From an uncultured Gemmatimonadales bacterium (GTDB lineage: Bacteria > Gemmatimonadota > Gemmatimonadetes > Longimicrobiales > RSA9): a stretch of DNA of 64,000 bases. The notes below the pieces were generated by a model. That model had not been told where the DNA came from, searched no databases, and saw only the letters and a program-made list of their open reading frames with translations. Positions 31,617-52,332 of this stretch are shown piece by piece. Every line of letters starts with the position of its first letter. The first letter of the stretch is position 1. A program made the translations under genes and the position numbers. The stretch spans positions 4,864,001 through 4,928,000 of the forward strand of contig OY970192.1 in the NCBI GenBank assembly GCA_963708135.1, written 5' to 3'.

Positions 31617-32516
31617 CTACGGGACCAGGGCCTGCGCGAGCCGGGCCACCGTGGCCAAGCGCCCGTCGTTGAGGTCCGTCCAGGTGAAGCGCAGCACACG
31701 GTATCCCGCGGCCGTCAGCTCGGCGTCCCGCCGGCGGTCGTTGACGAAGGCGCGCCTCGAGGAGTGAAATGCATATCCATCCACCTCCGCCACGACGCGC
31801 GCGCTCCGCCATGCGAAATCCACCTCGTGGCCGAGCACCCTCACGTTGAGCTCCGGGCGGGGCAGGCTGGCGCTCCGCGTGATCTCGAGTAGCCTCTCCT
31901 CCGCTTCGGAGCGCGTGAAGGACAGGCGCCCTTCGACGTCCAGTAGCTGCCGCAGCAGTGGCGCCCCGCGATGCTTCGGGTGTCGCTCGACCATCAGCCG
32001 CACGTCCTTACGAGTGACGAGGCCCATGCGCAGCGCCCTGGCCAGCGCCTGCTCCACCTCCCGGGAAGGGAGCGTCTCCGCGATGTCGAGCAGCGTCCGG
32101 GCAGGGGTCGTCACCGGAATACCCTCGCGAATCGTCACCTCGTCCGCCCACACGTCACGCCGGCGGTGGATCCGGACCCCTTTGAGTCAACGTCGCTTTC
32201 GGCGTGGCACGGTCACCTCCACGGTTGGGCGAGCGGCGGCGTCCAGCACGCCCTGCATTGCCGCCGCGCTCATGTGACTGATCCTGCCTTCCGGGCCACA
32301 CGCGAGCGTCGCGGCCGCTTCCGCGGCACATTCGGCCGGCAGCGGGCCGATCTGGTAGACGCCGCGCCACAACACCACGACGCGTCCCGCGCGTACCATT
32401 CCGTCGATCGTATGGGCCGTCAGTCCGCGGCCCAGGAGCTGCGCGCGCGTCGCCACCCCATGCTGTGAGGCACCCAGCTCCCGCAGGATGCCTTCGACCT
32501 CCACCCGCGTGCTCAT
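31617..32516 (-). pseudogene. AbiEi-like N-terminal domain + DUF559 (Vsr-like) nuclease with in-frame TGA at 32187-32189
   Basis: QHGVATRAQL, WRGVY, SHMSAA, VTTPARTLLD, RSEAE, EVDF, VAEVDG..H, DRRRD, GYRVLRFTW; track ORFs 32187..32630 and 31617..32153 share one frame (RKRR*LKGVRIH). Confidence 0.85.
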
Positions 32517-32822: not shown

Positions 32823-33125
32823 TTGCCAGTCGGCACCCCCGCCAGCCGGCACCCCGCCAGCCGGCACCCCGCCAGCCGGCACTCCGCCAGTCGGCACCCC
32901 CGCCAGTCGGCACCCCGCCAGCCGGCACTCCGCCAGTCGGCACCCCCGCCAGCCGGCACCGCCAGCCGGCACTCTGCCAGTCGGCACCCCGCCAGCCGGC
33001 ACCGCCAGCCGGCACCGCCAGCCGGCACTCCGCCAGCCGGCACCGCCAGCCGGCACTCCGCCAGCCGGCACCCCGCCAGCCGGCACCGCCAGCCGGCACG
33101 CCGCCAGCCGGCATCCGCCCGCCGG
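32823..33125 (+). repeat. Tandem repeat array, unit ~GCCAG(C/T)CGGCAC(C/T)CC (13-16 bp), roughly 20 copies
   Basis: Directly visible; degenerates further to ~33200. Confidence 0.92.
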
Positions 33126-33322
33126 CACTTACGGCCCGGCACCCGCCCACCGGCACGTACGACCCGGCATCCGCCCGCCGGCACGTACGACTCGGCCCCC
33201 TGCCCGCCGACACACCGCCAGCCCTGAGGCCCCAGGATCGTGCGGCGGCCGGGGCAGAGCCATGGCCATCCGGGTCATGTTCGGCACGCCTGTACTCGCG
33301 CCGGTCAGGTCGTGCAAGATGT

Positions 33323-37020: not shown

Positions 37021-37310
37021 TCGGGTGCCGCAGTCGGGTGCCGCAGTCGGGTGCCGCAGTCCGGGTGCCGCAGTCGGGTGCCGCAGTCCGGGTGCCGCAG
37101 TCGGGTGCCGCAGTCCGGGTGCCGCAGTCCGGGTGCCGCAGTCGGGTGCCGCAGTCCGGGTGCCGCAGTCGGGTGCCGCAGTCGGGTGCCGCAGTCGGGT
37201 GCCGCAGTCGGGTGCCGCAGTCGGGTGCCGCAGTCGGGTGCCGCAGTCGGGTGCCGCAGTCGGGTGCCGCAGTCGGGTGCCGCAGTCGGGTGCCGCAGTC
37301 GGGTGCCGCA
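37021..37310 (+). repeat. Tandem repeat (TCGGGTGCCGCAG)n, ~22 copies of 13 bp (some with an extra C)
   Basis: Directly visible; followed by CCCGG(G/T)-type short repeats to ~37376. Confidence 0.95.
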
Positions 37311-44917: not shown

Positions 44918-45224
44918 GGCACCCTCCTCCACTCTCGTTCCCGGCCGCGGGCGAGTCCCGCCGGCCACGGCCTCCAGCATGCCGCCGAGCAGCCGTGGAT
45001 CGAGCGGCGGCGACGCGAGCCGCAGCCGCGCGGGATGAGCCGCGGCCGTGAGGGCCGAGACGGCGCGAGCAGGGGCCGCCTCGGGCCGCCAGCGGAGCGG
45101 GTCGGCTCCCTGTCGCGGGCTGGCGGGGCAGGGCCTCCAGCACTCGGTGGTGGGACCTCGAGGGGCAGCTCCGGCAGCGTCGTGCAGCTTCGCGTCGGCC
45201 TCCACGCGGACCGGGACGGAGGGA

Positions 45225-45494
45225 GTCGGCGCATCCCGCCATGGACGCGCCCCATCCAGCGAGCGATCGTCGGACCAGGAGGGAGAGAGGGTCGGCGCAT
45301 CCCGCCATGGACGCGCCCCATCCAGCGAGCGATCGTCGGACCAGGAGGGAGAGAGGGTCGGCGCATCCCGCCATGGACGCGCTCCGTCCAGCGAGCGATC
45401 GTCGGACCAGGAGGCAGAGGGAGTCGGCGCATCCCGCCATGGACGCGCCCCCATCCAGCGAGCGATCGTCGGACCAGGAGGCAGAGGGAGTCGG
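45225..45494 (+). repeat. 66-bp tandem repeat, 4 copies
   Basis: Unit gtcggcgcatcccgccatggacgc...gagcgatcgtcggaccaggagg starts at 45225, 45291, 45357 and 45423. Confidence 0.92.
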
Positions 45495-45563
45495 AACCCC
45501 CCGCCGCGGAAGCGACCCCCGGGACCGATCGTGGGAGCCCCCGGCGGCGGGGGAGCGGGCCGC

Positions 45564-45731
45564 CGCAACCCGCCACTCGGGGCCGATCGGCAAACGAGTG
45601 GCGGCTTTGGACGCCCGCACGAGCTTGCGTCGCCGCTCGATCTCCGGTGCCGCGACGAGTGGCGGGTGCCGCAAGCCAGGCGTGCAGAACCCGGCCGCCG
45701 CTCGCGCCAGTGCGGCGAGTGGCGAGTTGTG
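45564..45731. repeat. Diverged copy of the ~170-bp inverted-repeat-bounded element
   Basis: CGCAACCCGCCACTCG ... CGAGTGGCGAGTTGTG ends; collinear with 46865-47034. Confidence 0.8.
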
Positions 45732-45845
45732 ATCCCGGCGGCGGTGGACCGCGCGCCATGGGTGGACCACGCGCCGCGGTGCCCTGGGTTGCCACGTCGA
45801 GCCTTGCGCGCCACGCCCCCGGAGCTGGAGAGCGAATCGTGCACG

Positions 45846-46772
45846 ATGCGCCGTGAAGTCGAAGTCAGGATCGCCGCGGTGGCCGCGGGCCAGCACGGCG
45901 TGGTTACGCGCGGGCAGCTGCTCGAGGCGGGGCTGTCACGCGCGGGGATCGCGCACCGCCTGGACGCGGGGTCGATCCGGCGGCTGCATCGCGGCGTGTT
46001 CCTGGTGGGGCCGCTGCTCGCCCCGCACACGGCGGAGATGGCCGCGGTGCTGGCGAGCGGCGGCCACGGGCTGGTCAGCCACACGAGCGCAGCGTCGCTC
46101 TGGGCACTTGGTGCCGCGCGCGCGGCGGGTGAGCCGGTTGAGATCGTGCGAGCCGGCACGAGCCGCGCGTGCCACCCCGGCATCCGGGTGCATCGCACCG
46201 CGGGGCTGGAGGCGGAGGACCGCGCGGTGGTCAACGCGATCCCGGTCACCGCGCCCGTGCGGACCCTGGTGGACCTGGCGGGGGTGGTCGGCAGCGGGGA
46301 GCTGGAGCGGGCCGTGGCGCGCGCGGAGCGGGAGGGCCTCGTCACCCGCGAGGCGCTGCTGGCGCGGGTGGCGCGGAGCGGAGGCCGGCGCGGCATCGTC
46401 GCACTTCGTCGCCTGCTCGGCATACCCGGCGGACCGGCGCTCACGCGCTCGGAGGCGGAGGCGGCCTTCCTCGCCCTGGTCCGTGAGGCAGGGCTTCCGG
46501 CGCCGGAGGCGAACGCCCCATTCGGCCGATACGAGCTCGACTTCCTGTGGCGCGCCGAAGGAGTCGCGGTGGAGGTGGACGGGTTCCGGAGCCATTCGAC
46601 ACGGCCGCGCTTCGAGGGCGACCGGCGCAAGGACGCGCGGCTGCTGGCCGCCGGAATCAAGGTCCTGCGCGTCACGTGGCGGCAGATCGCCGACGACGCG
46701 GTGGCCACCGCGGTCCAGGTCGGCCAGGCCCTCGCCCGGGCCGGGGCCGAGCGGGGCGGACGGACCAGGTAG
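45846..46772 (+). CDS. AbiEi-like N-terminal domain + DUF559 (Vsr-like endonuclease) protein, ~308 aa
   Basis: QHGVVTRGQL, RRLHRGVF, SHTSAA, VTAPVRTLVDL, RSEAE, ELDFLW, AVEVDG..H, DRRKD, VLRVTW. Confidence 0.88.
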   Translation: MRREVEVRIAAVAAGQHGVVTRGQLLEAGLSRAGIAHRLDAGSIRRLHRGVFLVGPLLAPHTAEMAAVLASGGHGLVSHTSAASLWALGAARAAGEPVEIVRAGTSRACHPGIRVHRTAGLEAEDRAVVNAIPVTAPVRTLVDLAGVVGSGELERAVARAEREGLVTREALLARVARSGGRRGIVALRRLLGIPGGPALTRSEAEAAFLALVREAGLPAPEANAPFGRYELDFLWRAEGVAVEVDGFRSHSTRPRFEGDRRKDARLLAAGIKVLRVTWRQIADDAVATAVQVGQALARAGAERGGRTR

Positions 46773-46836
46773 GCGACGCCGGGTCCTCCGTCCTGCCTCC
46801 CGCGACCACGGCAGCGCCGCGCCCCGCGACGGAGGG

Positions 46837-47522
46837 GACCAGCCGGCGTCGGCGGACGCAGTCGGCACAACTCACCACTCGAGACGGATCGGGAAGCGAG
46901 TGATGGGTTCGGACGCCTCCACGAGCCCGAGCCGCCCGTCGATTTCCGGTGTCCGGACGAGTGGCAGCTTGTGCCGGCCAAGCGTGCAGAAACCCGCCGC
47001 CGCATGCGCCAGTGCGACGAGTGGCGCGTTGTGCACCCGGCACACGCGCGCCGCGGGTGGCCCGAGACCAGCCGGCGTCGGCGGACGCAGTCGGCACAAC
47101 TCACCACTCGAGACGGATCGGGAAGCGAGTGATGGGTTCGGACGCCTCCACGAGCCCGAGCCGCCCGTCGATTTCCGGTGTCCGGACGAGTGGCAGCTTG
47201 TGCCGGCCAAGCGTGCAGAAACCCGCCGCCGCATTTGCCGGTGCGACGAGTGGCGAGTTGTGCACCCGGCACACGCGCGCCGCGGGTGGCCCGAGACCAG
47301 CCGGCGTCGGCGGACGCAGTCGGCACAACTCACCACTCGAGACGGATCGGGAAGCGAGTGATGGGTTCGGACGCCTCCACGAGCCCGAGCCGCCCGTCGA
47401 TTTCCGGTGTCCGGACGAGTGGCAGCTTGTGCCGGCCAAGCGTGCAGAAACCCGCCGCCGCATTTGCCGGTGCGACGAGTGGCGAGTTGTGCACCCGGCA
47501 CACGCGCGCCGCGGGTGGCCCG
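46837..47522 (+). repeat. 229-bp tandem repeat, 3 near-identical copies, each containing a ~170-bp element with terminal inverted repeats
   Basis: Units start at 46837, 47066 and 47295; inner ends GCACAACTCACCACTCG / CGAGTGGCG(C/A)GTTGTGC. Confidence 0.93.
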
Positions 47523-47547
47523 CGCACTGCCCGCAGGCGCGGGTTGG

Positions 47548-47689
47548 TCCGCCGCCTGCACCGGGGCGTGTTCCGCCGCCTGCGCCGCGGCGTGTTCCGC
47601 CGCCTGCGCCGCGGCGTGTTCCGCCGCCTGCACCGGGGCGTGTTCCGCCGCCTGCACCGGGGCGTGTTCCGCCGCCTGCGCCGCGGCGT
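47548..47689 (+). repeat. 24-bp tandem repeat, 6 copies (encodes FRRL(H/R)RGV)
   Basis: tccgccgcctgc(a/g)ccg(g/c)ggcgtgt at 47548, 47572, 47596, 47620, 47644 and 47668. Confidence 0.92.
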
Positions 47690-48493: not shown

Positions 48494-50242
48494 ATGCCAG
48501 CGGAGCGCGAGGGTCCTCCCTCCGCGGCCGTGTCTGCCGGCCCCACGGCGGCGGACCCGCTCGAGCGCCTCGCCGACCTGGCCGATGCACTGGGCGCCGG
48601 CCGGGCGGCCCGGGAGGCGCGGGCGCTCGCGGAGCGCGTGGCGGAAGGCCGCTTCAACGTCGCCTGCGTGGGGCAGTTCAAGCGGGGCAAGTCCACGCTG
48701 CTGAACGCCCTCGTGGGCCGGTCCGTCCTCCCCACCGGCGTCATCCCGGTGACCGCGACGCCGACGATCCTGCGCTGGGGGCCGAAGCCGGCCGCGCTCG
48801 TGCGCCTTGCGGACGGCGAGACCCGGCGCATCGAGCTCGGTGCGGTGGCGGATTACGTCACGGAGGAGCGTAACCCGGCGAACGCCAGGGGCGTGGACGC
48901 GGTGGAGATGCTGCTGCCCGCGCCCCTCCTTTATGGCGGGCTGTGCCTCGTGGATACGCCCGGGCTGGGCTCGGTCTTCGACGTGGCCACGGGCGCCACC
49001 CACGCCTTCGTGCCGCACATCGACGCGGCGCTGCTCGTGCTCGGCGCGGATCCGCCGATCTCCGCGGACGAGGCCGAGCTCGCCGCCGCCGTGAGCGCGC
49101 AGGTGCCGGATGTGATCGTACTCCTGGCCAAGGCGGACCGGGTCCCCGCCGCCGAGCGCGCGGAGGCGGCCCGCTTCGCGGCGCGCGTGCTGGAGGAGCG
49201 CACCGGCCGCGCGCCGGGGCCGATCCTGGAGGTCAGCTCCACCGAAGCCCTGGCTGGTGAGCGCACGCGCGACTGGGGCCGGTTGGTCGAACGGCTGCAC
49301 GCGCTGTCGGCGCGGTCGGGCCGCGCGCTCGTCCGCGCCGCGCGGGAGCGGGCCGTCCGGCGGCTCGGCGCGCAGCTGCTCTCCCTGGCCGCCGAGGAGC
49401 GGAGCCTGCTGGCCGCCAGCGCGGACGAGCGCGAGCGCCGGCTCGAGGCGCTGCGCCGGTCGGAGGGCGCCCTCGAGGAGCGGCTGCGCTACCTGAGCCG
49501 GATGCTCGCGGAGGAGGAGGAGCGGCTCGCCGACGCGTTCCGCGGGCGGGGGCAGCGGTTCCTGGCGGAGAGCCTCCCGCCCGCCGTCGATGAGCTGGCG
49601 CGCGCGCTGGGGGACGAGCGCACGCGGGGCCCCGCCTTCCGCCGGCGCGCCGCGGAGCTCGCGCGCGACGTGGCCCGACGCCGCATCGAGCCGTGGCTGG
49701 CCCGGGAGGAGGCGGCGGCGGACGAGGCGTACGGCGAGGTGGCCGCGCGTCTCGTGGACAGAGCCAACGGCTTCCTGGATGAGCTCGCCGCGTCTGAGCG
49801 GACGGGACTCCGCGCGCTGCCGCACGCGCTCGGGCCCGAGCCCGCGCTCCGGGGCCGGCGCCGCTTCAGCTTCAACGCCTTCCCCACCCACTTCGTCTCG
49901 CCCGGCCCGCTCCAGTGGCTCTTCGACACGCTCGCCCCGCCGCGCTGGCTGCGCGCGCGCGTCCAACGACAGGCCGCGGAGTTCCTCCAGTGGCTGCTCG
50001 AGGCCAACGCCGTGCGCGTGCGGAGCGATCTCGCCGAGCGCGTGGCCGGGAGCCGGCGCGCCCTCGAGGGAGAGATCCGCGCGATCCTGGAGGACGCGCG
50101 CGCCTGGACGGGGGCGGCGATCGAACGCGCGCAGGCGCTCCACGCCGCCGGCCTCGAGGCGACGCGGCCCGAGCTCGCCCGGCTCGAGACCATCGAGGGC
50201 GCGCTCCGCACCGTCACCGGCGAGGTGGCTCGGCCGTCATAG
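48494..50242 (+). CDS. Dynamin-family GTPase (bacterial dynamin-like protein A, ~582 aa)
   Basis: RBS AAAGGAG; GQFKRGKST, LPTGVIPVT, LVDTPG, AKAD; helical C-terminal stalk. Confidence 0.9.
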   Translation: MPAEREGPPSAAVSAGPTAADPLERLADLADALGAGRAAREARALAERVAEGRFNVACVGQFKRGKSTLLNALVGRSVLPTGVIPVTATPTILRWGPKPAALVRLADGETRRIELGAVADYVTEERNPANARGVDAVEMLLPAPLLYGGLCLVDTPGLGSVFDVATGATHAFVPHIDAALLVLGADPPISADEAELAAAVSAQVPDVIVLLAKADRVPAAERAEAARFAARVLEERTGRAPGPILEVSSTEALAGERTRDWGRLVERLHALSARSGRALVRAARERAVRRLGAQLLSLAAEERSLLAASADERERRLEALRRSEGALEERLRYLSRMLAEEEERLADAFRGRGQRFLAESLPPAVDELARALGDERTRGPAFRRRAAELARDVARRRIEPWLAREEAAADEAYGEVAARLVDRANGFLDELAASERTGLRALPHALGPEPALRGRRRFSFNAFPTHFVSPGPLQWLFDTLAPPRWLRARVQRQAAEFLQWLLEANAVRVRSDLAERVAGSRRALEGEIRAILEDARAWTGAAIERAQALHAAGLEATRPELARLETIEGALRTVTGEVARPS

Positions 50243-50250
50243 TGGACCAA

Positions 50251-50418
50251 CTAGTGGACCGTATCCGAAGTAGCGATGGCATTCGCCGGCGGATCGGACG
50301 CGACCCGCCGCGTTGCTCGTCGTCGAAATAGCGCTGCTATTCCTTCCTCCTCGCGCCTTGCGCTTCGCGCCCGCTCCGCCGGCTCGGTGCTCACCGAACT
50401 TCAGATACGGTCCACTAG
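50251..50418. mobile_element. MITE-like element (160 bp) with terminal inverted repeats and CTAG flanks
   Basis: CTAG-TGGACCGTATCCGAAGT ... ACTTCAGATACGGTCCA-CTAG (1 mismatch); internal AATAGC/GCTATT hairpin; no transposase. Confidence 0.8.
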
Positions 50419-51794
50419 CCATCGGCCGCGTCGCCGGCGCCGGCGGATCCGCGGCGTGCTCGATCCGAGCCGTCCTCCGCCGTTTCCGGCCCGGCCGCCG
50501 CCCGCTCCGCGGCGCGCCTCGCGACGAGCGCCGCCGCGGCACGCTCTTCGAGGTGCGCCAGGCGCCCCGCGAGCCGGTCGCCAGGTGAGCGCGCCCAGGC
50601 CAGCGGCTCGAGGACCTCGGCCCGGAGCGGCTCCAGCGTGGGGTCCAGGCCGGCGGCGGTGGAGACCGGCAGGACCGCCGGCACCGCGCCCCCCAGCGCG
50701 CGGGCGGCCTCCCCGGCGAGGTACGCGAGGGAACGTTCCAGCTCCGCCTCCGAGAGCAGGTCGGCCTTGCTCAGCAGGAGGCGCCACTCCACACCCGCGG
50801 AGGAGAGCCCCGCGAGCAGGGCGAGGTCCTCCTCGTCCAGCGCGCTCCCGGCCGCCACCAGGACGAGGCCGAGGTCGCACCGGGCCAGCCACGCGAAGGG
50901 GAGGGCCGTGGTGGCCGTGACGCGCGAGGCCACGCCCGGCGTGTCCAGGAACCGGATCCGTGCGGGCGCCGTGGGCACCCATATCTCGAGCGACGCCACG
51001 CCGAGCCGGTTGCCGGGGTTCTCCTCTTCGGCCGCGAAACCCGCCACGGCCTCCAGCGGGTGCCGCTCGGTGCGCCCGCCCGCGAACCGCACCAGCACCC
51101 CGGCCTCGCCCTGCTCGACGCGGAGCGGCAGGGCCGTGACCGGGGTGGCGCCCACCGGCAGGGCCGGGGCGCCCACGAGGGCATTGATGAGGGAGGACTT
51201 CCCGGAGCTCGTCCGGCCGAAGATGCCTACGTCGACCATGGACGAGGTGGCCCGCTCCGCCAGCGCCGCGATCTCGGGGTAGAGCTCGACCAGCTCGTGA
51301 TCGCGCGCCAGGCTGAGAACCGCGCGCAATGTCTCCGCCGTGGGCTCCGGCACCGCCTCGAGACGGGTCTCCAGGTCGCCGTATCCGCTGCCCCGGAGCA
51401 GCTCGCGCGCCGGGGCGAGCCGGGCGCGGAGCTCCGCCGCCACGCGCTTCACCGACTCGGCCGAGGCGGCATCCAGCGCGCCGTAGCGGCGGAGCGTCGC
51501 CGGCTGGAGCTCCGAGAGCGCGATGTCGATGAACGTCAGCGCGGTGAGCGCGCTCCAGCGGGCGGAGATGGCCGGCTCGGGGAGCGGGATGTCGAGCCGG
51601 CCGAGCGCCTCCAGCAGCGCCGCCCTGAGCTCCGCCACGAAGGCAAGGAGCATCCGCGACTCGTACGCCGAGAGGTCCGCCCGCTCCTTCGAGAAGGCGG
51701 AAAGGTCCTCCCGCGCCAGCCGCGCAATGCCGTCGACGAGCTCGCTCGTGTGCGCGAACGTCGAGGTGACGAAGCGGTTCTGCAATGGATTCAT
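50415..51794 (-). CDS. Dynamin-family GTPase (protein B, ~459 aa, N-terminal helical extension)
   Basis: GRTSSGKSS, LPVGATPVT, FLDTPG, SKAD. Confidence 0.85.
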   Translation of the reverse strand: MNPLQNRFVTSTFAHTSELVDGIARLAREDLSAFSKERADLSAYESRMLLAFVAELRAALLEALGRLDIPLPEPAISARWSALTALTFIDIALSELQPATLRRYGALDAASAESVKRVAAELRARLAPARELLRGSGYGDLETRLEAVPEPTAETLRAVLSLARDHELVELYPEIAALAERATSSMVDVGIFGRTSSGKSSLINALVGAPALPVGATPVTALPLRVEQGEAGVLVRFAGGRTERHPLEAVAGFAAEEENPGNRLGVASLEIWVPTAPARIRFLDTPGVASRVTATTALPFAWLARCDLGLVLVAAGSALDEEDLALLAGLSSAGVEWRLLLSKADLLSEAELERSLAYLAGEAARALGGAVPAVLPVSTAAGLDPTLEPLRAEVLEPLAWARSPGDRLAGRLAHLEERAAAALVARRAAERAAAGPETAEDGSDRARRGSAGAGDAADG

Positions 51795-51922
51795 GGGCTG
51801 CCCCCGCGCGCATGATCGTCCCGGCCGCGACGCGAGGCAAGGAGCCGGGATGCGCGCCGCGTCGCCGCCCGCGCGGCCCGGGTGGGCGCGCCCGCGCCGC
51901 TCGCGGGCCCCGCTCGCCTCCC

Positions 51923-51951
51923 TTGACTCGGTGCCGGCCCGCGGGTAGCGT
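51923..51951 (+). promoter_or_regulatory. Putative sigma70 promoter
   Basis: TTGACT-17-TAGCGT just upstream of direct repeat copy 2 and the small membrane gene. Confidence 0.5.
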
Positions 51952-51966
51952 CGGATCGCGCCGCCA

Positions 51967-52003
51967 CGCCGCGTGCCCATCTCCCCTGAACCGGCCGCCC
52001 CGG
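51967..52003 (+). repeat. 37-bp perfect direct repeat, copy 2
   Basis: Identical to 48184-48220. Confidence 0.9.
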
Positions 52004-52017
52004 CCGCCGGAGCGATC

Positions 52018-52332
52018 ATGGACCCACGGCAGTTCGTCCTGACCCTGATCATCCTGGGCATCCCCGCGGTCTCGCTCAGCACCTGGCTGCTGAGCAGGCC
52101 GTTCCTCAACGCCTTCCTCCGCAGCCGCGAGCTGAAGGCGGGCGTGCGGATGGATCCCGCGCGTCTGGACGCGCAGGACCAGCGCATCGCGGAGCTCGAG
52201 GGCGAGGTCGCGGCCATGCGGCACGAGATGGAGCGGCTGTCCAGCGTGGAGAGCTTCTACGCCCAGCTCGGCGCCGGAAACCCGAAAGGCGTTCCACCCC
52301 CGGGCGCAAAGCCCGCCGGCCCCGGCGTCTGA
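52018..52332 (+). CDS. Small membrane-anchored coiled-coil hypothetical protein (alternative GTG start 51973)
   Basis: TM FVLTLIILGIPAVSLSTWLL, then heptads RIAELEGEVAAMRHEMERL. Confidence 0.7.
   Translation: MDPRQFVLTLIILGIPAVSLSTWLLSRPFLNAFLRSRELKAGVRMDPARLDAQDQRIAELEGEVAAMRHEMERLSSVESFYAQLGAGNPKGVPPPGAKPAGPGV

Follow-up and report, generated by a model that had tools for sequence, protein, structure and literature searches.

The genome of an uncultured Gemmatimonadales bacterium, closed at 5.45 Mb and with 72% G+C, contains a gene for a 308-residue AbiEi-DUF559 protein that lies between copies of a 172-bp intergenic repeat made of six arms. Both were analysed in a stretch of 64,000 nucleotides (contig OY970192.1, positions 4,864,001 to 4,928,000; here called the window, position 1 being its first letter). 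A previous interpretation made from the letters of the window alone, the sequence-only reading, had proposed a nuclease-plus-repeat partnership with dispersed solo copies. This partnership is well supported by the geometry of the repeats, their adjacency to the genes and the co-variation of arms and proteins. We lean slightly towards a mechanism in which the AbiEi-nuclease binds its own six-arm repeat and cuts at or beside it, and repair copies the repeat to new sites.

The gene and its repeats occupy the following positions of the window:

45846–46772, plus strand: AbiEi-DUF559 gene, 308 amino acids, from ATG at 45846 to TAG at 46772; Pfam matches AbiEi_4 (E 2e-10) and DUF559 (E 9e-5)
45562–45733, plus strand: upstream six-arm element of family A, from paired-arm and six-arm matrix scans; arms at 45562 (forward, F), 45595 (reverse, R), 45622 (F), 45656 (R), 45683 (F) and 45716 (R)
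46864–47035, plus strand: downstream six-arm element, copy 1, from the arm matrix
47093–47264, plus strand: downstream six-arm element, copy 2, from the arm matrix
47322–47493, plus strand: downstream six-arm element, copy 3, from the arm matrix
46837–47522, plus strand: 229-bp tandem array of 3.0 units with 99% match, each unit being one element plus 57 bp of flank

Architecture of the repeat

The 172-bp element comprises six arms of 18 bp each whose orientation alternates: F at offsets 0, 60 and 121, R at 33, 94 and 154. The period is 60–61 bp. The arm matrix was trained from a 13-base seed, and any loop of 8–25 bases was permitted, so the spacing was not imposed. The paired-arm scan converged on 70 units with loops of 15 (48 units), 16 (21) or 18 (1) bases, compared with none in the reversed genome, and the pairs occur in threes along the genome. 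Full copies reach six-arm scores of 82–128 against a control maximum of 9. The dispersed copies expected by the sequence-only reading are present: we found 23 gap-free family A copies at 19 intergenic places, one further copy that lacks a single base, and others that are partial or lie in arrays. None of the 26 element positions checked overlaps a gene called by a hexamer model.

The layout of one diverged copy upstream and three downstream in 229-bp units, described in the sequence-only reading, holds. Upstream and downstream copies are 75–76% alike without gaps, compared with the 99% match within the array. The CACTCG-N15-CGAGTG palindrome is likewise present (CACTCG at 45574 and CGAGTG at 45595, 15 bases between), followed by further CGAGTG motifs at 45656 and 45716. 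That the motifs are kept as the bases between them vary is confirmed by the match to the consensus, which is 79% in the arms and 58% in the loops. The proposed terminal inverted repeats are real in that the outer arms are complementary at 14–16 of 18 positions, but they are merely the outer two of six equivalent arms.

The 18 non-redundant family A copies are 46–82% alike, with a median of 57%. The four copies of the window form one clade (support 0.98) with two solo copies located 1.6 and 3.6 Mb away; the latter are 81–82% alike to the gene-flanking copies, and the flanks are unrelated. An origin of the element as a coding remnant found no support, with stops in 1–7 of the 18 copies per frame and a period that is no multiple of three.

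Paralogues border their own repeat families

The genome holds seven AbiEi-DUF559 paralogues, six of which border one of five six-arm families (A–E) obtained by flank searches and iterated hidden Markov models (HMMs). Family A lies on both sides of the 45846–46772 gene, and family B on both sides of its paralogue (20 matches). Family C brackets one paralogue and lies downstream of another (30 matches), D lies upstream of its paralogue (34 matches), and E occurs in arrays on both sides of its own. The seventh paralogue, also in the window (31617–32516), carries an internal stop and no element. All five families have inverted axes every 30–31 bp and periods of 60–62, share an A at positions 10–11 from the junction, and range in element length from 172 to 183 bp. 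In a gap-allowing search the net indel was 0 in 24/28 copies of A, 11/18 of B, 23/26 of C, 22/26 of D and 6/8 of E. Copy-to-copy similarity drops to background beyond the outer junction axes in four families, and the elements appear to have discrete ends at these axes.

De novo clustering of 1637 intergenic regions was independent of the family definitions, which avoids circularity. In the clusters matching A and B (18 regions each), E (5) and, once split, C (25), an AbiEi-DUF559 paralogue is the sole gene bracketed; the other intergenic repeat families of the genome bracket unrelated genes. A sequence-blind geometry scan gave 108 peaks (shuffled maximum 16.8), 97 of them in families A–E, including three that belong to an orphan subfamily. 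Only six of 3987 genes are flanked on both sides by a geometry peak: four paralogues and two MacB/FtsX permeases.

It could be argued that this is a repeat-rich genome whose long intergenic regions gather elements, the flanks of this gene included, and the bracketing of unrelated genes by several other repeat families speaks for such a coincidence. We consider it barely credible: that four of the six genes with elements on both sides should be paralogues, together with the same geometry beside homologues in relatives and the arm-protein co-variation described below, largely refutes it.

Geometry recurs in relatives and arms co-vary with the protein

The protein is matched in 20 of 40 related genomes, and the source labels of the homologues are Gemmatimonadales or Longimicrobiales; a related-locus search on genome contigs gave 2 loci. 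Among full-length homologues in relatives, 19/44 have a geometry peak of at least 20 within 800 bp (four partial homologues, L019, L020, L021 and L032, were dropped before counting, and L022 and L023 fell below the search threshold). As background, 158/3987 genes of the present genome have a six-arm peak within that distance. The element is thus associated with the gene family elsewhere, as the sequence-only reading implied, with the same geometry and another sequence.

The sequence itself does not travel. The 40 relatives contain only 22–37-bp fragments of family A DNA, in 9 genomes, and an exact 14-mer gave three single matches, none of them an element. The CGAGTG family was not found outside this genome among the 41 genomes searched, and is private in this sense. 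Across the gene family, geometry therefore seems to be common and the motif not. In genome G008, private families dispersed over 19 and 8 contigs belong to two gene-adjacent elements, and four other genomes contain none of them. Four gene-bearing genomes yielded 4 geometry peaks (3 distinct) in 988 kb, compared with 0 peaks in 980 kb from four that lack a protein match. Pattern scans for the A palindrome returned 36 metagenome stretches and one viral stretch, which were set aside: no homologue lies within 2 kb, and most are unrelated hairpins. One metagenome stretch (L063:1100-1204) has A-like arms at a 60-bp period, with no homologue in the available DNA.

The sequence-only reading expected flanking motifs to co-vary with protein phylogeny, and they do. 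Arm similarity follows protein identity with a Mantel rho of 0.62 (n=24 pairs; 0/1000 permutations as high; the two-piece genes L002, L009 and L103 were excluded from the protein alignment). The value is 0.63 for cross-genome pairs and 0.64 with six long branches removed, against 0.14 for the loop control, and the correlation is strongest at positions 4–11 from the junction (0.62). Arm similarity is not driven by the host (0.39 within the same genome, 0.36 between different genomes).

AbiEi-DUF559 proteins form a large family: matches numbered 2429 among 8000 candidates scored, and the Atlas clusters of such proteins are mostly actinobacterial. NCBIfam holds no family for the protein, 50,697 phage records gave no match, and plasmid records gave one match, at 31%.

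An AbiEi fold joined to an EDxHD nuclease

The structure of the 308-residue protein was predicted with a pLDDT (predicted local distance difference test) of 93. In the model, residues 1–198 form an AbiEi fold, a winged helix followed by a C-terminal domain (6y8q: Z 13.2, root-mean-square deviation (rmsd) 4.3, 184 residues aligned). Residues 200–301 form a Vsr-like EDxHD nuclease (I-Bth0305I, 3r3p: Z 13.5, rmsd 2.8, 97 aligned). The nuclease residues are E205, D232, E243, D245, H250 and D259. The last five are invariant in 119 homologues, the six acidic or histidine residues are kept in 47/47 aligned proteins, and D232, H250 and D259 align with D196, H213 and D222 of I-Bth0305I. The protein is predicted to combine a full AbiEi fold with an EDxHD nuclease whose catalytic residues are intact.

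PADLOC matches the protein to AbiEi (E 6e-29). All 12 PADLOC hits are to the AbiEi antitoxin fold and no defence neighbourhood was seen, which leaves the suggestion of a defensive module without backing. The sequence-only reading had thought a type IV antitoxin unlikely for want of an adjacent toxin gene; in agreement, PF08843 (AbiEii/DUF1814 toxin) has no match anywhere in the genome. PF01797 (Y1_Tnp, RAYT) has no match in the genome either (97.65% complete; the control gave a match in 6/14).

Probable duplex sites rather than folded hairpins

Single copies fold better than shuffles, with z of −2.2 as DNA and −3.9 as RNA, as is expected of any palindrome. We assessed compensatory pairing by comparing complementarity within copies with that between permuted copies (row-permuted null) for 16 pairings. 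Only the pairing of arm 1 with arm 2 exceeds the null (z 2.6); the other 15 tests do not, and three of them fall below it. The arms pair at only 58–77%, as independent drift around a consensus predicts, and the loops are unpaired. Rfam gave no family at gathering score, a sigma-70 promoter and terminator scan gave no match, and a tRNA scan likewise returned nothing relevant. Selection seems to act on arm sequence and spacing, not on pairing.

Structured RNAs, one of the options raised in the sequence-only reading, are not borne out by these tests. More broadly, the repeats could be folded RNA or single-strand DNA hairpins, acting as a guide, an antitoxin or a REPIN-like substrate, for which the folding scores and the arm 1–arm 2 pairing speak. 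This appears highly improbable to us given the remaining pairings, the unpaired loops, the degree of arm pairing and the empty Rfam and sigma-70 scans. Because arm pairing does not co-vary, we read the element as several binding sites on duplex DNA and not as RNA.

A promoter-like motif precedes the genes

Three further features of the window lie close to the AbiEi-DUF559 genes or are themselves one:

45207–45494, plus strand: 66-bp tandem array of 4.4 units with the promoter-like motif, copies from 45227, 45293, 45359 and 45425
47548–47689, strand not assigned: 24-bp tandem array of 5.9 units, arm motif absent, best arm-matrix score 1.0
31617–32516, minus strand: second AbiEi-DUF559 paralogue, with an in-frame stop and no detectable six-arm element

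A resemblance of the 66-bp repeat to the left end of the element had been suggested, but on the arm matrix it scores −2.7 at best in the forward direction. Arms in called units score 8.7 or more, and a few degenerate arms of full copies about 0–2. The repeat instead carries a 28-bp motif followed by a hexamer that we take to be −10-like. The array amplifies this promoter-like motif and stands outside the element family.

The motif matrix was trained on 18 sites only, none of them upstream of AbiEi-DUF559 genes. It matches upstream of 6/7 paralogues and 21/36 homologues in relatives on the same strand, compared with 1/36 on the other strand, 2/300 random genes and 0/199 random windows. Of 46 matches in the genome, 39 are intergenic. 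Some precede ssb, a RecQ-type helicase, a T2SSE/MshEN ATPase, a pilin-like cluster, the gene preceding comEC and a Mg_chelatase-family gene, presumably ComM; the motif was not found before dprA. Others precede four IS91-type transposases (positions 1814929, 1828532, 1836238 and 1847895 of the host contig, G000:C1), two Uma2 nucleases and a 23S_rRNA_IVP gene (1801639, 4383347 and 3905146). A DNA-uptake regulon may be common to several mobile or repeat-linked genes. The stop-bearing paralogue lacks an intact six-arm element; its copy of the motif is weak, and a 15-bp array of 21 units (32825–33128) lies upstream of the gene.

Proposed mechanism and its alternatives

In the mechanism towards which we lean, the AbiEi-Vsr protein would bind double-stranded DNA at each of the six arms of its 172-bp repeat, and the nuclease would cut at or beside the repeat. 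Repair would then copy the repeat to new intergenic sites and leave tandem duplications nearby, nicking being the likely trigger of spread. By analogy with AbiEi monomers and the I-Bth0305I dimer, whose footprints fit one subunit per 30.5 bp and one dimer per 61-bp period, each half-unit of 30.5 bp may hold one subunit, with the nuclease domains pairing the subunits at TT-N19-AA junctions. The gene would be expressed together with DNA-uptake and repair genes. Binding of the protein to its own element is probable; that the nuclease drives the spread of the repeats we put at about an even chance. What results would be a selfish partnership, slow and resident in the chromosome; it would work like RAYT/REP or Ssn/NTS, but through an unrelated enzyme and a duplex site defined by its spacing.

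Other tandem arrays are found in 36/79 element-bearing intergenic regions against 61/717 others, an excess present in every length class; some of these arrays contain the element itself. Such arrays, like the 66-, 229- and 24-bp arrays here, would suit breakage and repair beside the elements, and leave the step that makes a new copy unseen.

Several observations weigh against this mechanism. An orphan six-arm family occurs at 6 places with no nuclease gene adjoining, two of its copies bracketing the MacB/FtsX permease genes (G000:C1 213955, 216807, 473934, 478977, 1121035 and 4281316; period 60-62-60 in five of six), and a singleton six-arm element at 1998656 adjoins no nuclease gene either. 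The target duplications anticipated in the sequence-only reading were not found: the longest flank repeat is 0–3 bp in 21/23 copies, where a MITE or classical non-autonomous insertion sequence would be expected to have such duplications, but the copies are old. An arm-like target sequence is present in only 1/156 unshifted outer windows, and empty sites did not turn up, so the data do not reveal how the repeats spread. Among the homologues in relatives, 1/44 has the element on both sides and 25/44 have none within 800 bp, some of these flanks being shortened by contig ends. The closest relative with DNA (62%) has no element in 180 bp upstream, to the contig end, and 1500 bp downstream. One gene-adjacent element, in G015, is single-copy in its genome, which is 75% complete. 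The presence/absence sampling in the eight genomes appears consistent with a gene–element link and supports it weakly, and, gene and element being linked, common descent may account for some of the co-variation. Vsr-type nucleases are not known to join DNA.

The protein may instead serve the host in an Ssn-like manner, binding and cutting at its repeats to tune the recombination of incoming or chromosomal DNA during competence; the repeats would be retained as marks, with spread as a secondary effect. The promoter-like motif, shared with uptake, repair and pilus genes, points in this direction, as does the restriction of transforming DNA by SsnA at flanking NTS repeats (available text of PMC11893778). 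We nevertheless regard this as unlikely. SsnA reads single-strand hairpins and pairing does not co-vary here; about 100 elements in five non-overlapping families better suit the turnover of selfish families than one host mark; and the motif, not found before dprA, lies ahead of IS91-type transposases, Uma2 nucleases and a four-helix-bundle gene as well. A somewhat more doubtful alternative reduces the repeat to an operator or scaffold: the protein would be an AbiEi-type autorepressor or DNA bender, and another enzyme or recombination would move the repeats. In its favour, the promoters of AbiEi and Rv2827c hold inverted repeats that these proteins bind, with DNA bending in the case of AbiEi (PMC7319586 and PMC3985639, available text), the upstream copy comes after the promoter-like motif and before the start codon, and target duplications are missing. 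Elements are, however, found downstream of homologues as often as upstream, and element-bearing intergenic regions show all gene orientations (convergent in 22/79). The invariance of the nuclease residues in the 47 aligned proteins and the lack of a Y1 transposase in the genome also argue against a mere operator.

A broader reading, which we offer tentatively and hold to be rather less than even in probability, is a new class of selfish DNA. Competence-co-induced AbiEi-EDxHD nucleases would bind as three dimers on each 172–183-bp six-site element and mobilise it by nick and repair, with no transposase, hairpin or target duplication; the geometry would be universal and the sequence private to each enzyme. 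Each enzyme–element pair would then be an orthogonal, long-site DNA-binding nuclease.

Comparison with known systems

The partnership works like RAYT/REP or Ssn/NTS but belongs to neither, nor to AbiE or the homing endonucleases. REPtrons consist of RAYT genes (Y1 HUH transposases) and REP/REPIN repeats (PMC3733652, available text). As in REPtrons, an enzyme gene lies between its own palindromic repeats, solo copies are dispersed and one genome holds several gene-specific families. Here the enzyme is AbiEi_4 plus DUF559, in a genome with no Y1_Tnp, and in place of REP hairpins of 20–40 bp with a GTAG/CGTC tag there is a 172–183-bp six-arm repeat with no tag and no compensatory pairing.

SsnA of Neisseria meningitidis is a single-domain GIY-YIG enzyme that cuts single-strand hairpins of 20–50 nt, and 31% of SsnA homologues come with an NTS repeat and 14% with repeats on both sides, according to the available text of PMC11893778. 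The Ssn/NTS system resembles ours in having a nuclease gene beside cognate dispersed repeats (here at 19 and 1 of 44 homologues), private variants and a link to natural transformation. It differs from the three-domain protein (AbiEi plus Vsr-type) and duplex-type six-site array found here.

Residues 1–198 contain the whole AbiEi fold, as in AbiEi of Streptococcus agalactiae (6y8q) and Rv2827c (1zel). Members of this family bind tandem inverted repeats as monomers: the available text of PMC7319586 and PMC3985639 describes two or four inverted repeats of 23 bp as the sites that AbiEi and Rv2827c bind at the promoters of their own genes, AbiEi monomers bending the DNA. Unlike type IV AbiE, the present system has no bicistronic AbiEii toxin, an extra nuclease domain and sites dispersed beyond the promoter. 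With I-Bth0305I, a dimer contacting 60 bp as two 30-bp half-sites (PMC3239194, available text), the protein shares the EDxHD nuclease fold and the catalytic D, H and D, and the dimer footprint equals the repeat period. AbiEi replaces the NUMOD binding part, however, and the flanks are not arm-like. Unlike homing endonuclease genes, this gene is free-standing between unrelated neighbours, and no intron or intein was seen.

A literature search, with subscription papers and supplements outside its reach, found no description of an AbiEi-DUF559 gene–repeat partnership. AbiEi-DUF559 proteins, catalogued as orphan antitoxins or as enzymes of 'very short patch repair', here gain a candidate substrate. 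The 24 natural enzyme–element pairs offer one geometry with different arms. Alongside HUH (RAYT) and GIY-YIG (Ssn), the system would count as a third class of enzyme in the origin and spread of intergenic repeat families, and within the literature searched it would be the first such class read as spaced duplex sites.

Other features of the window and genome

The AbiEi-DUF559 gene at 45846–46772 has a GC3 (G+C at third codon positions) of 0.90, and the next gene is convergent and 930 bp distant. None of the sequencing runs listed as containing this DNA is an RNA run, which carries no information about expression. A soil sequencing run has contigs 96 and 259 bases long for the 66-bp and 229-bp arrays. 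Each length is the period plus 30, as collapsed tandem repeats at a word length of 31 would give. These contigs speak against an assembly artefact for the arrays, but the run may be the source sample.

A Dynamin_N gene (48494–50239) has weak PADLOC matches to LeoA/LeoBC, and a second dynamin-like frame lies on the other strand (50415–52217). Two further repeat families, purine-rich and 13–15-bp, were set aside since six-arm geometry is absent from both. The purine-rich family, which includes a hairpin, is intergenic with 119 HMM matches (for example G000:C1 242726 and 3230672-3234898), often in tandem arrays of about 225–238 bp. The 13–15-bp tandem array family is represented at 37021–37310 of the window and by 24 segments in the genome; a frame beside one such array is presumably four-helix-bundle-like. 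Near G000:C1 3645000 lies a direct-repeat array resembling CRISPR, which we take to be of type I-E-like repeat; its period of 61 bp, as in the elements, is probably a coincidence.

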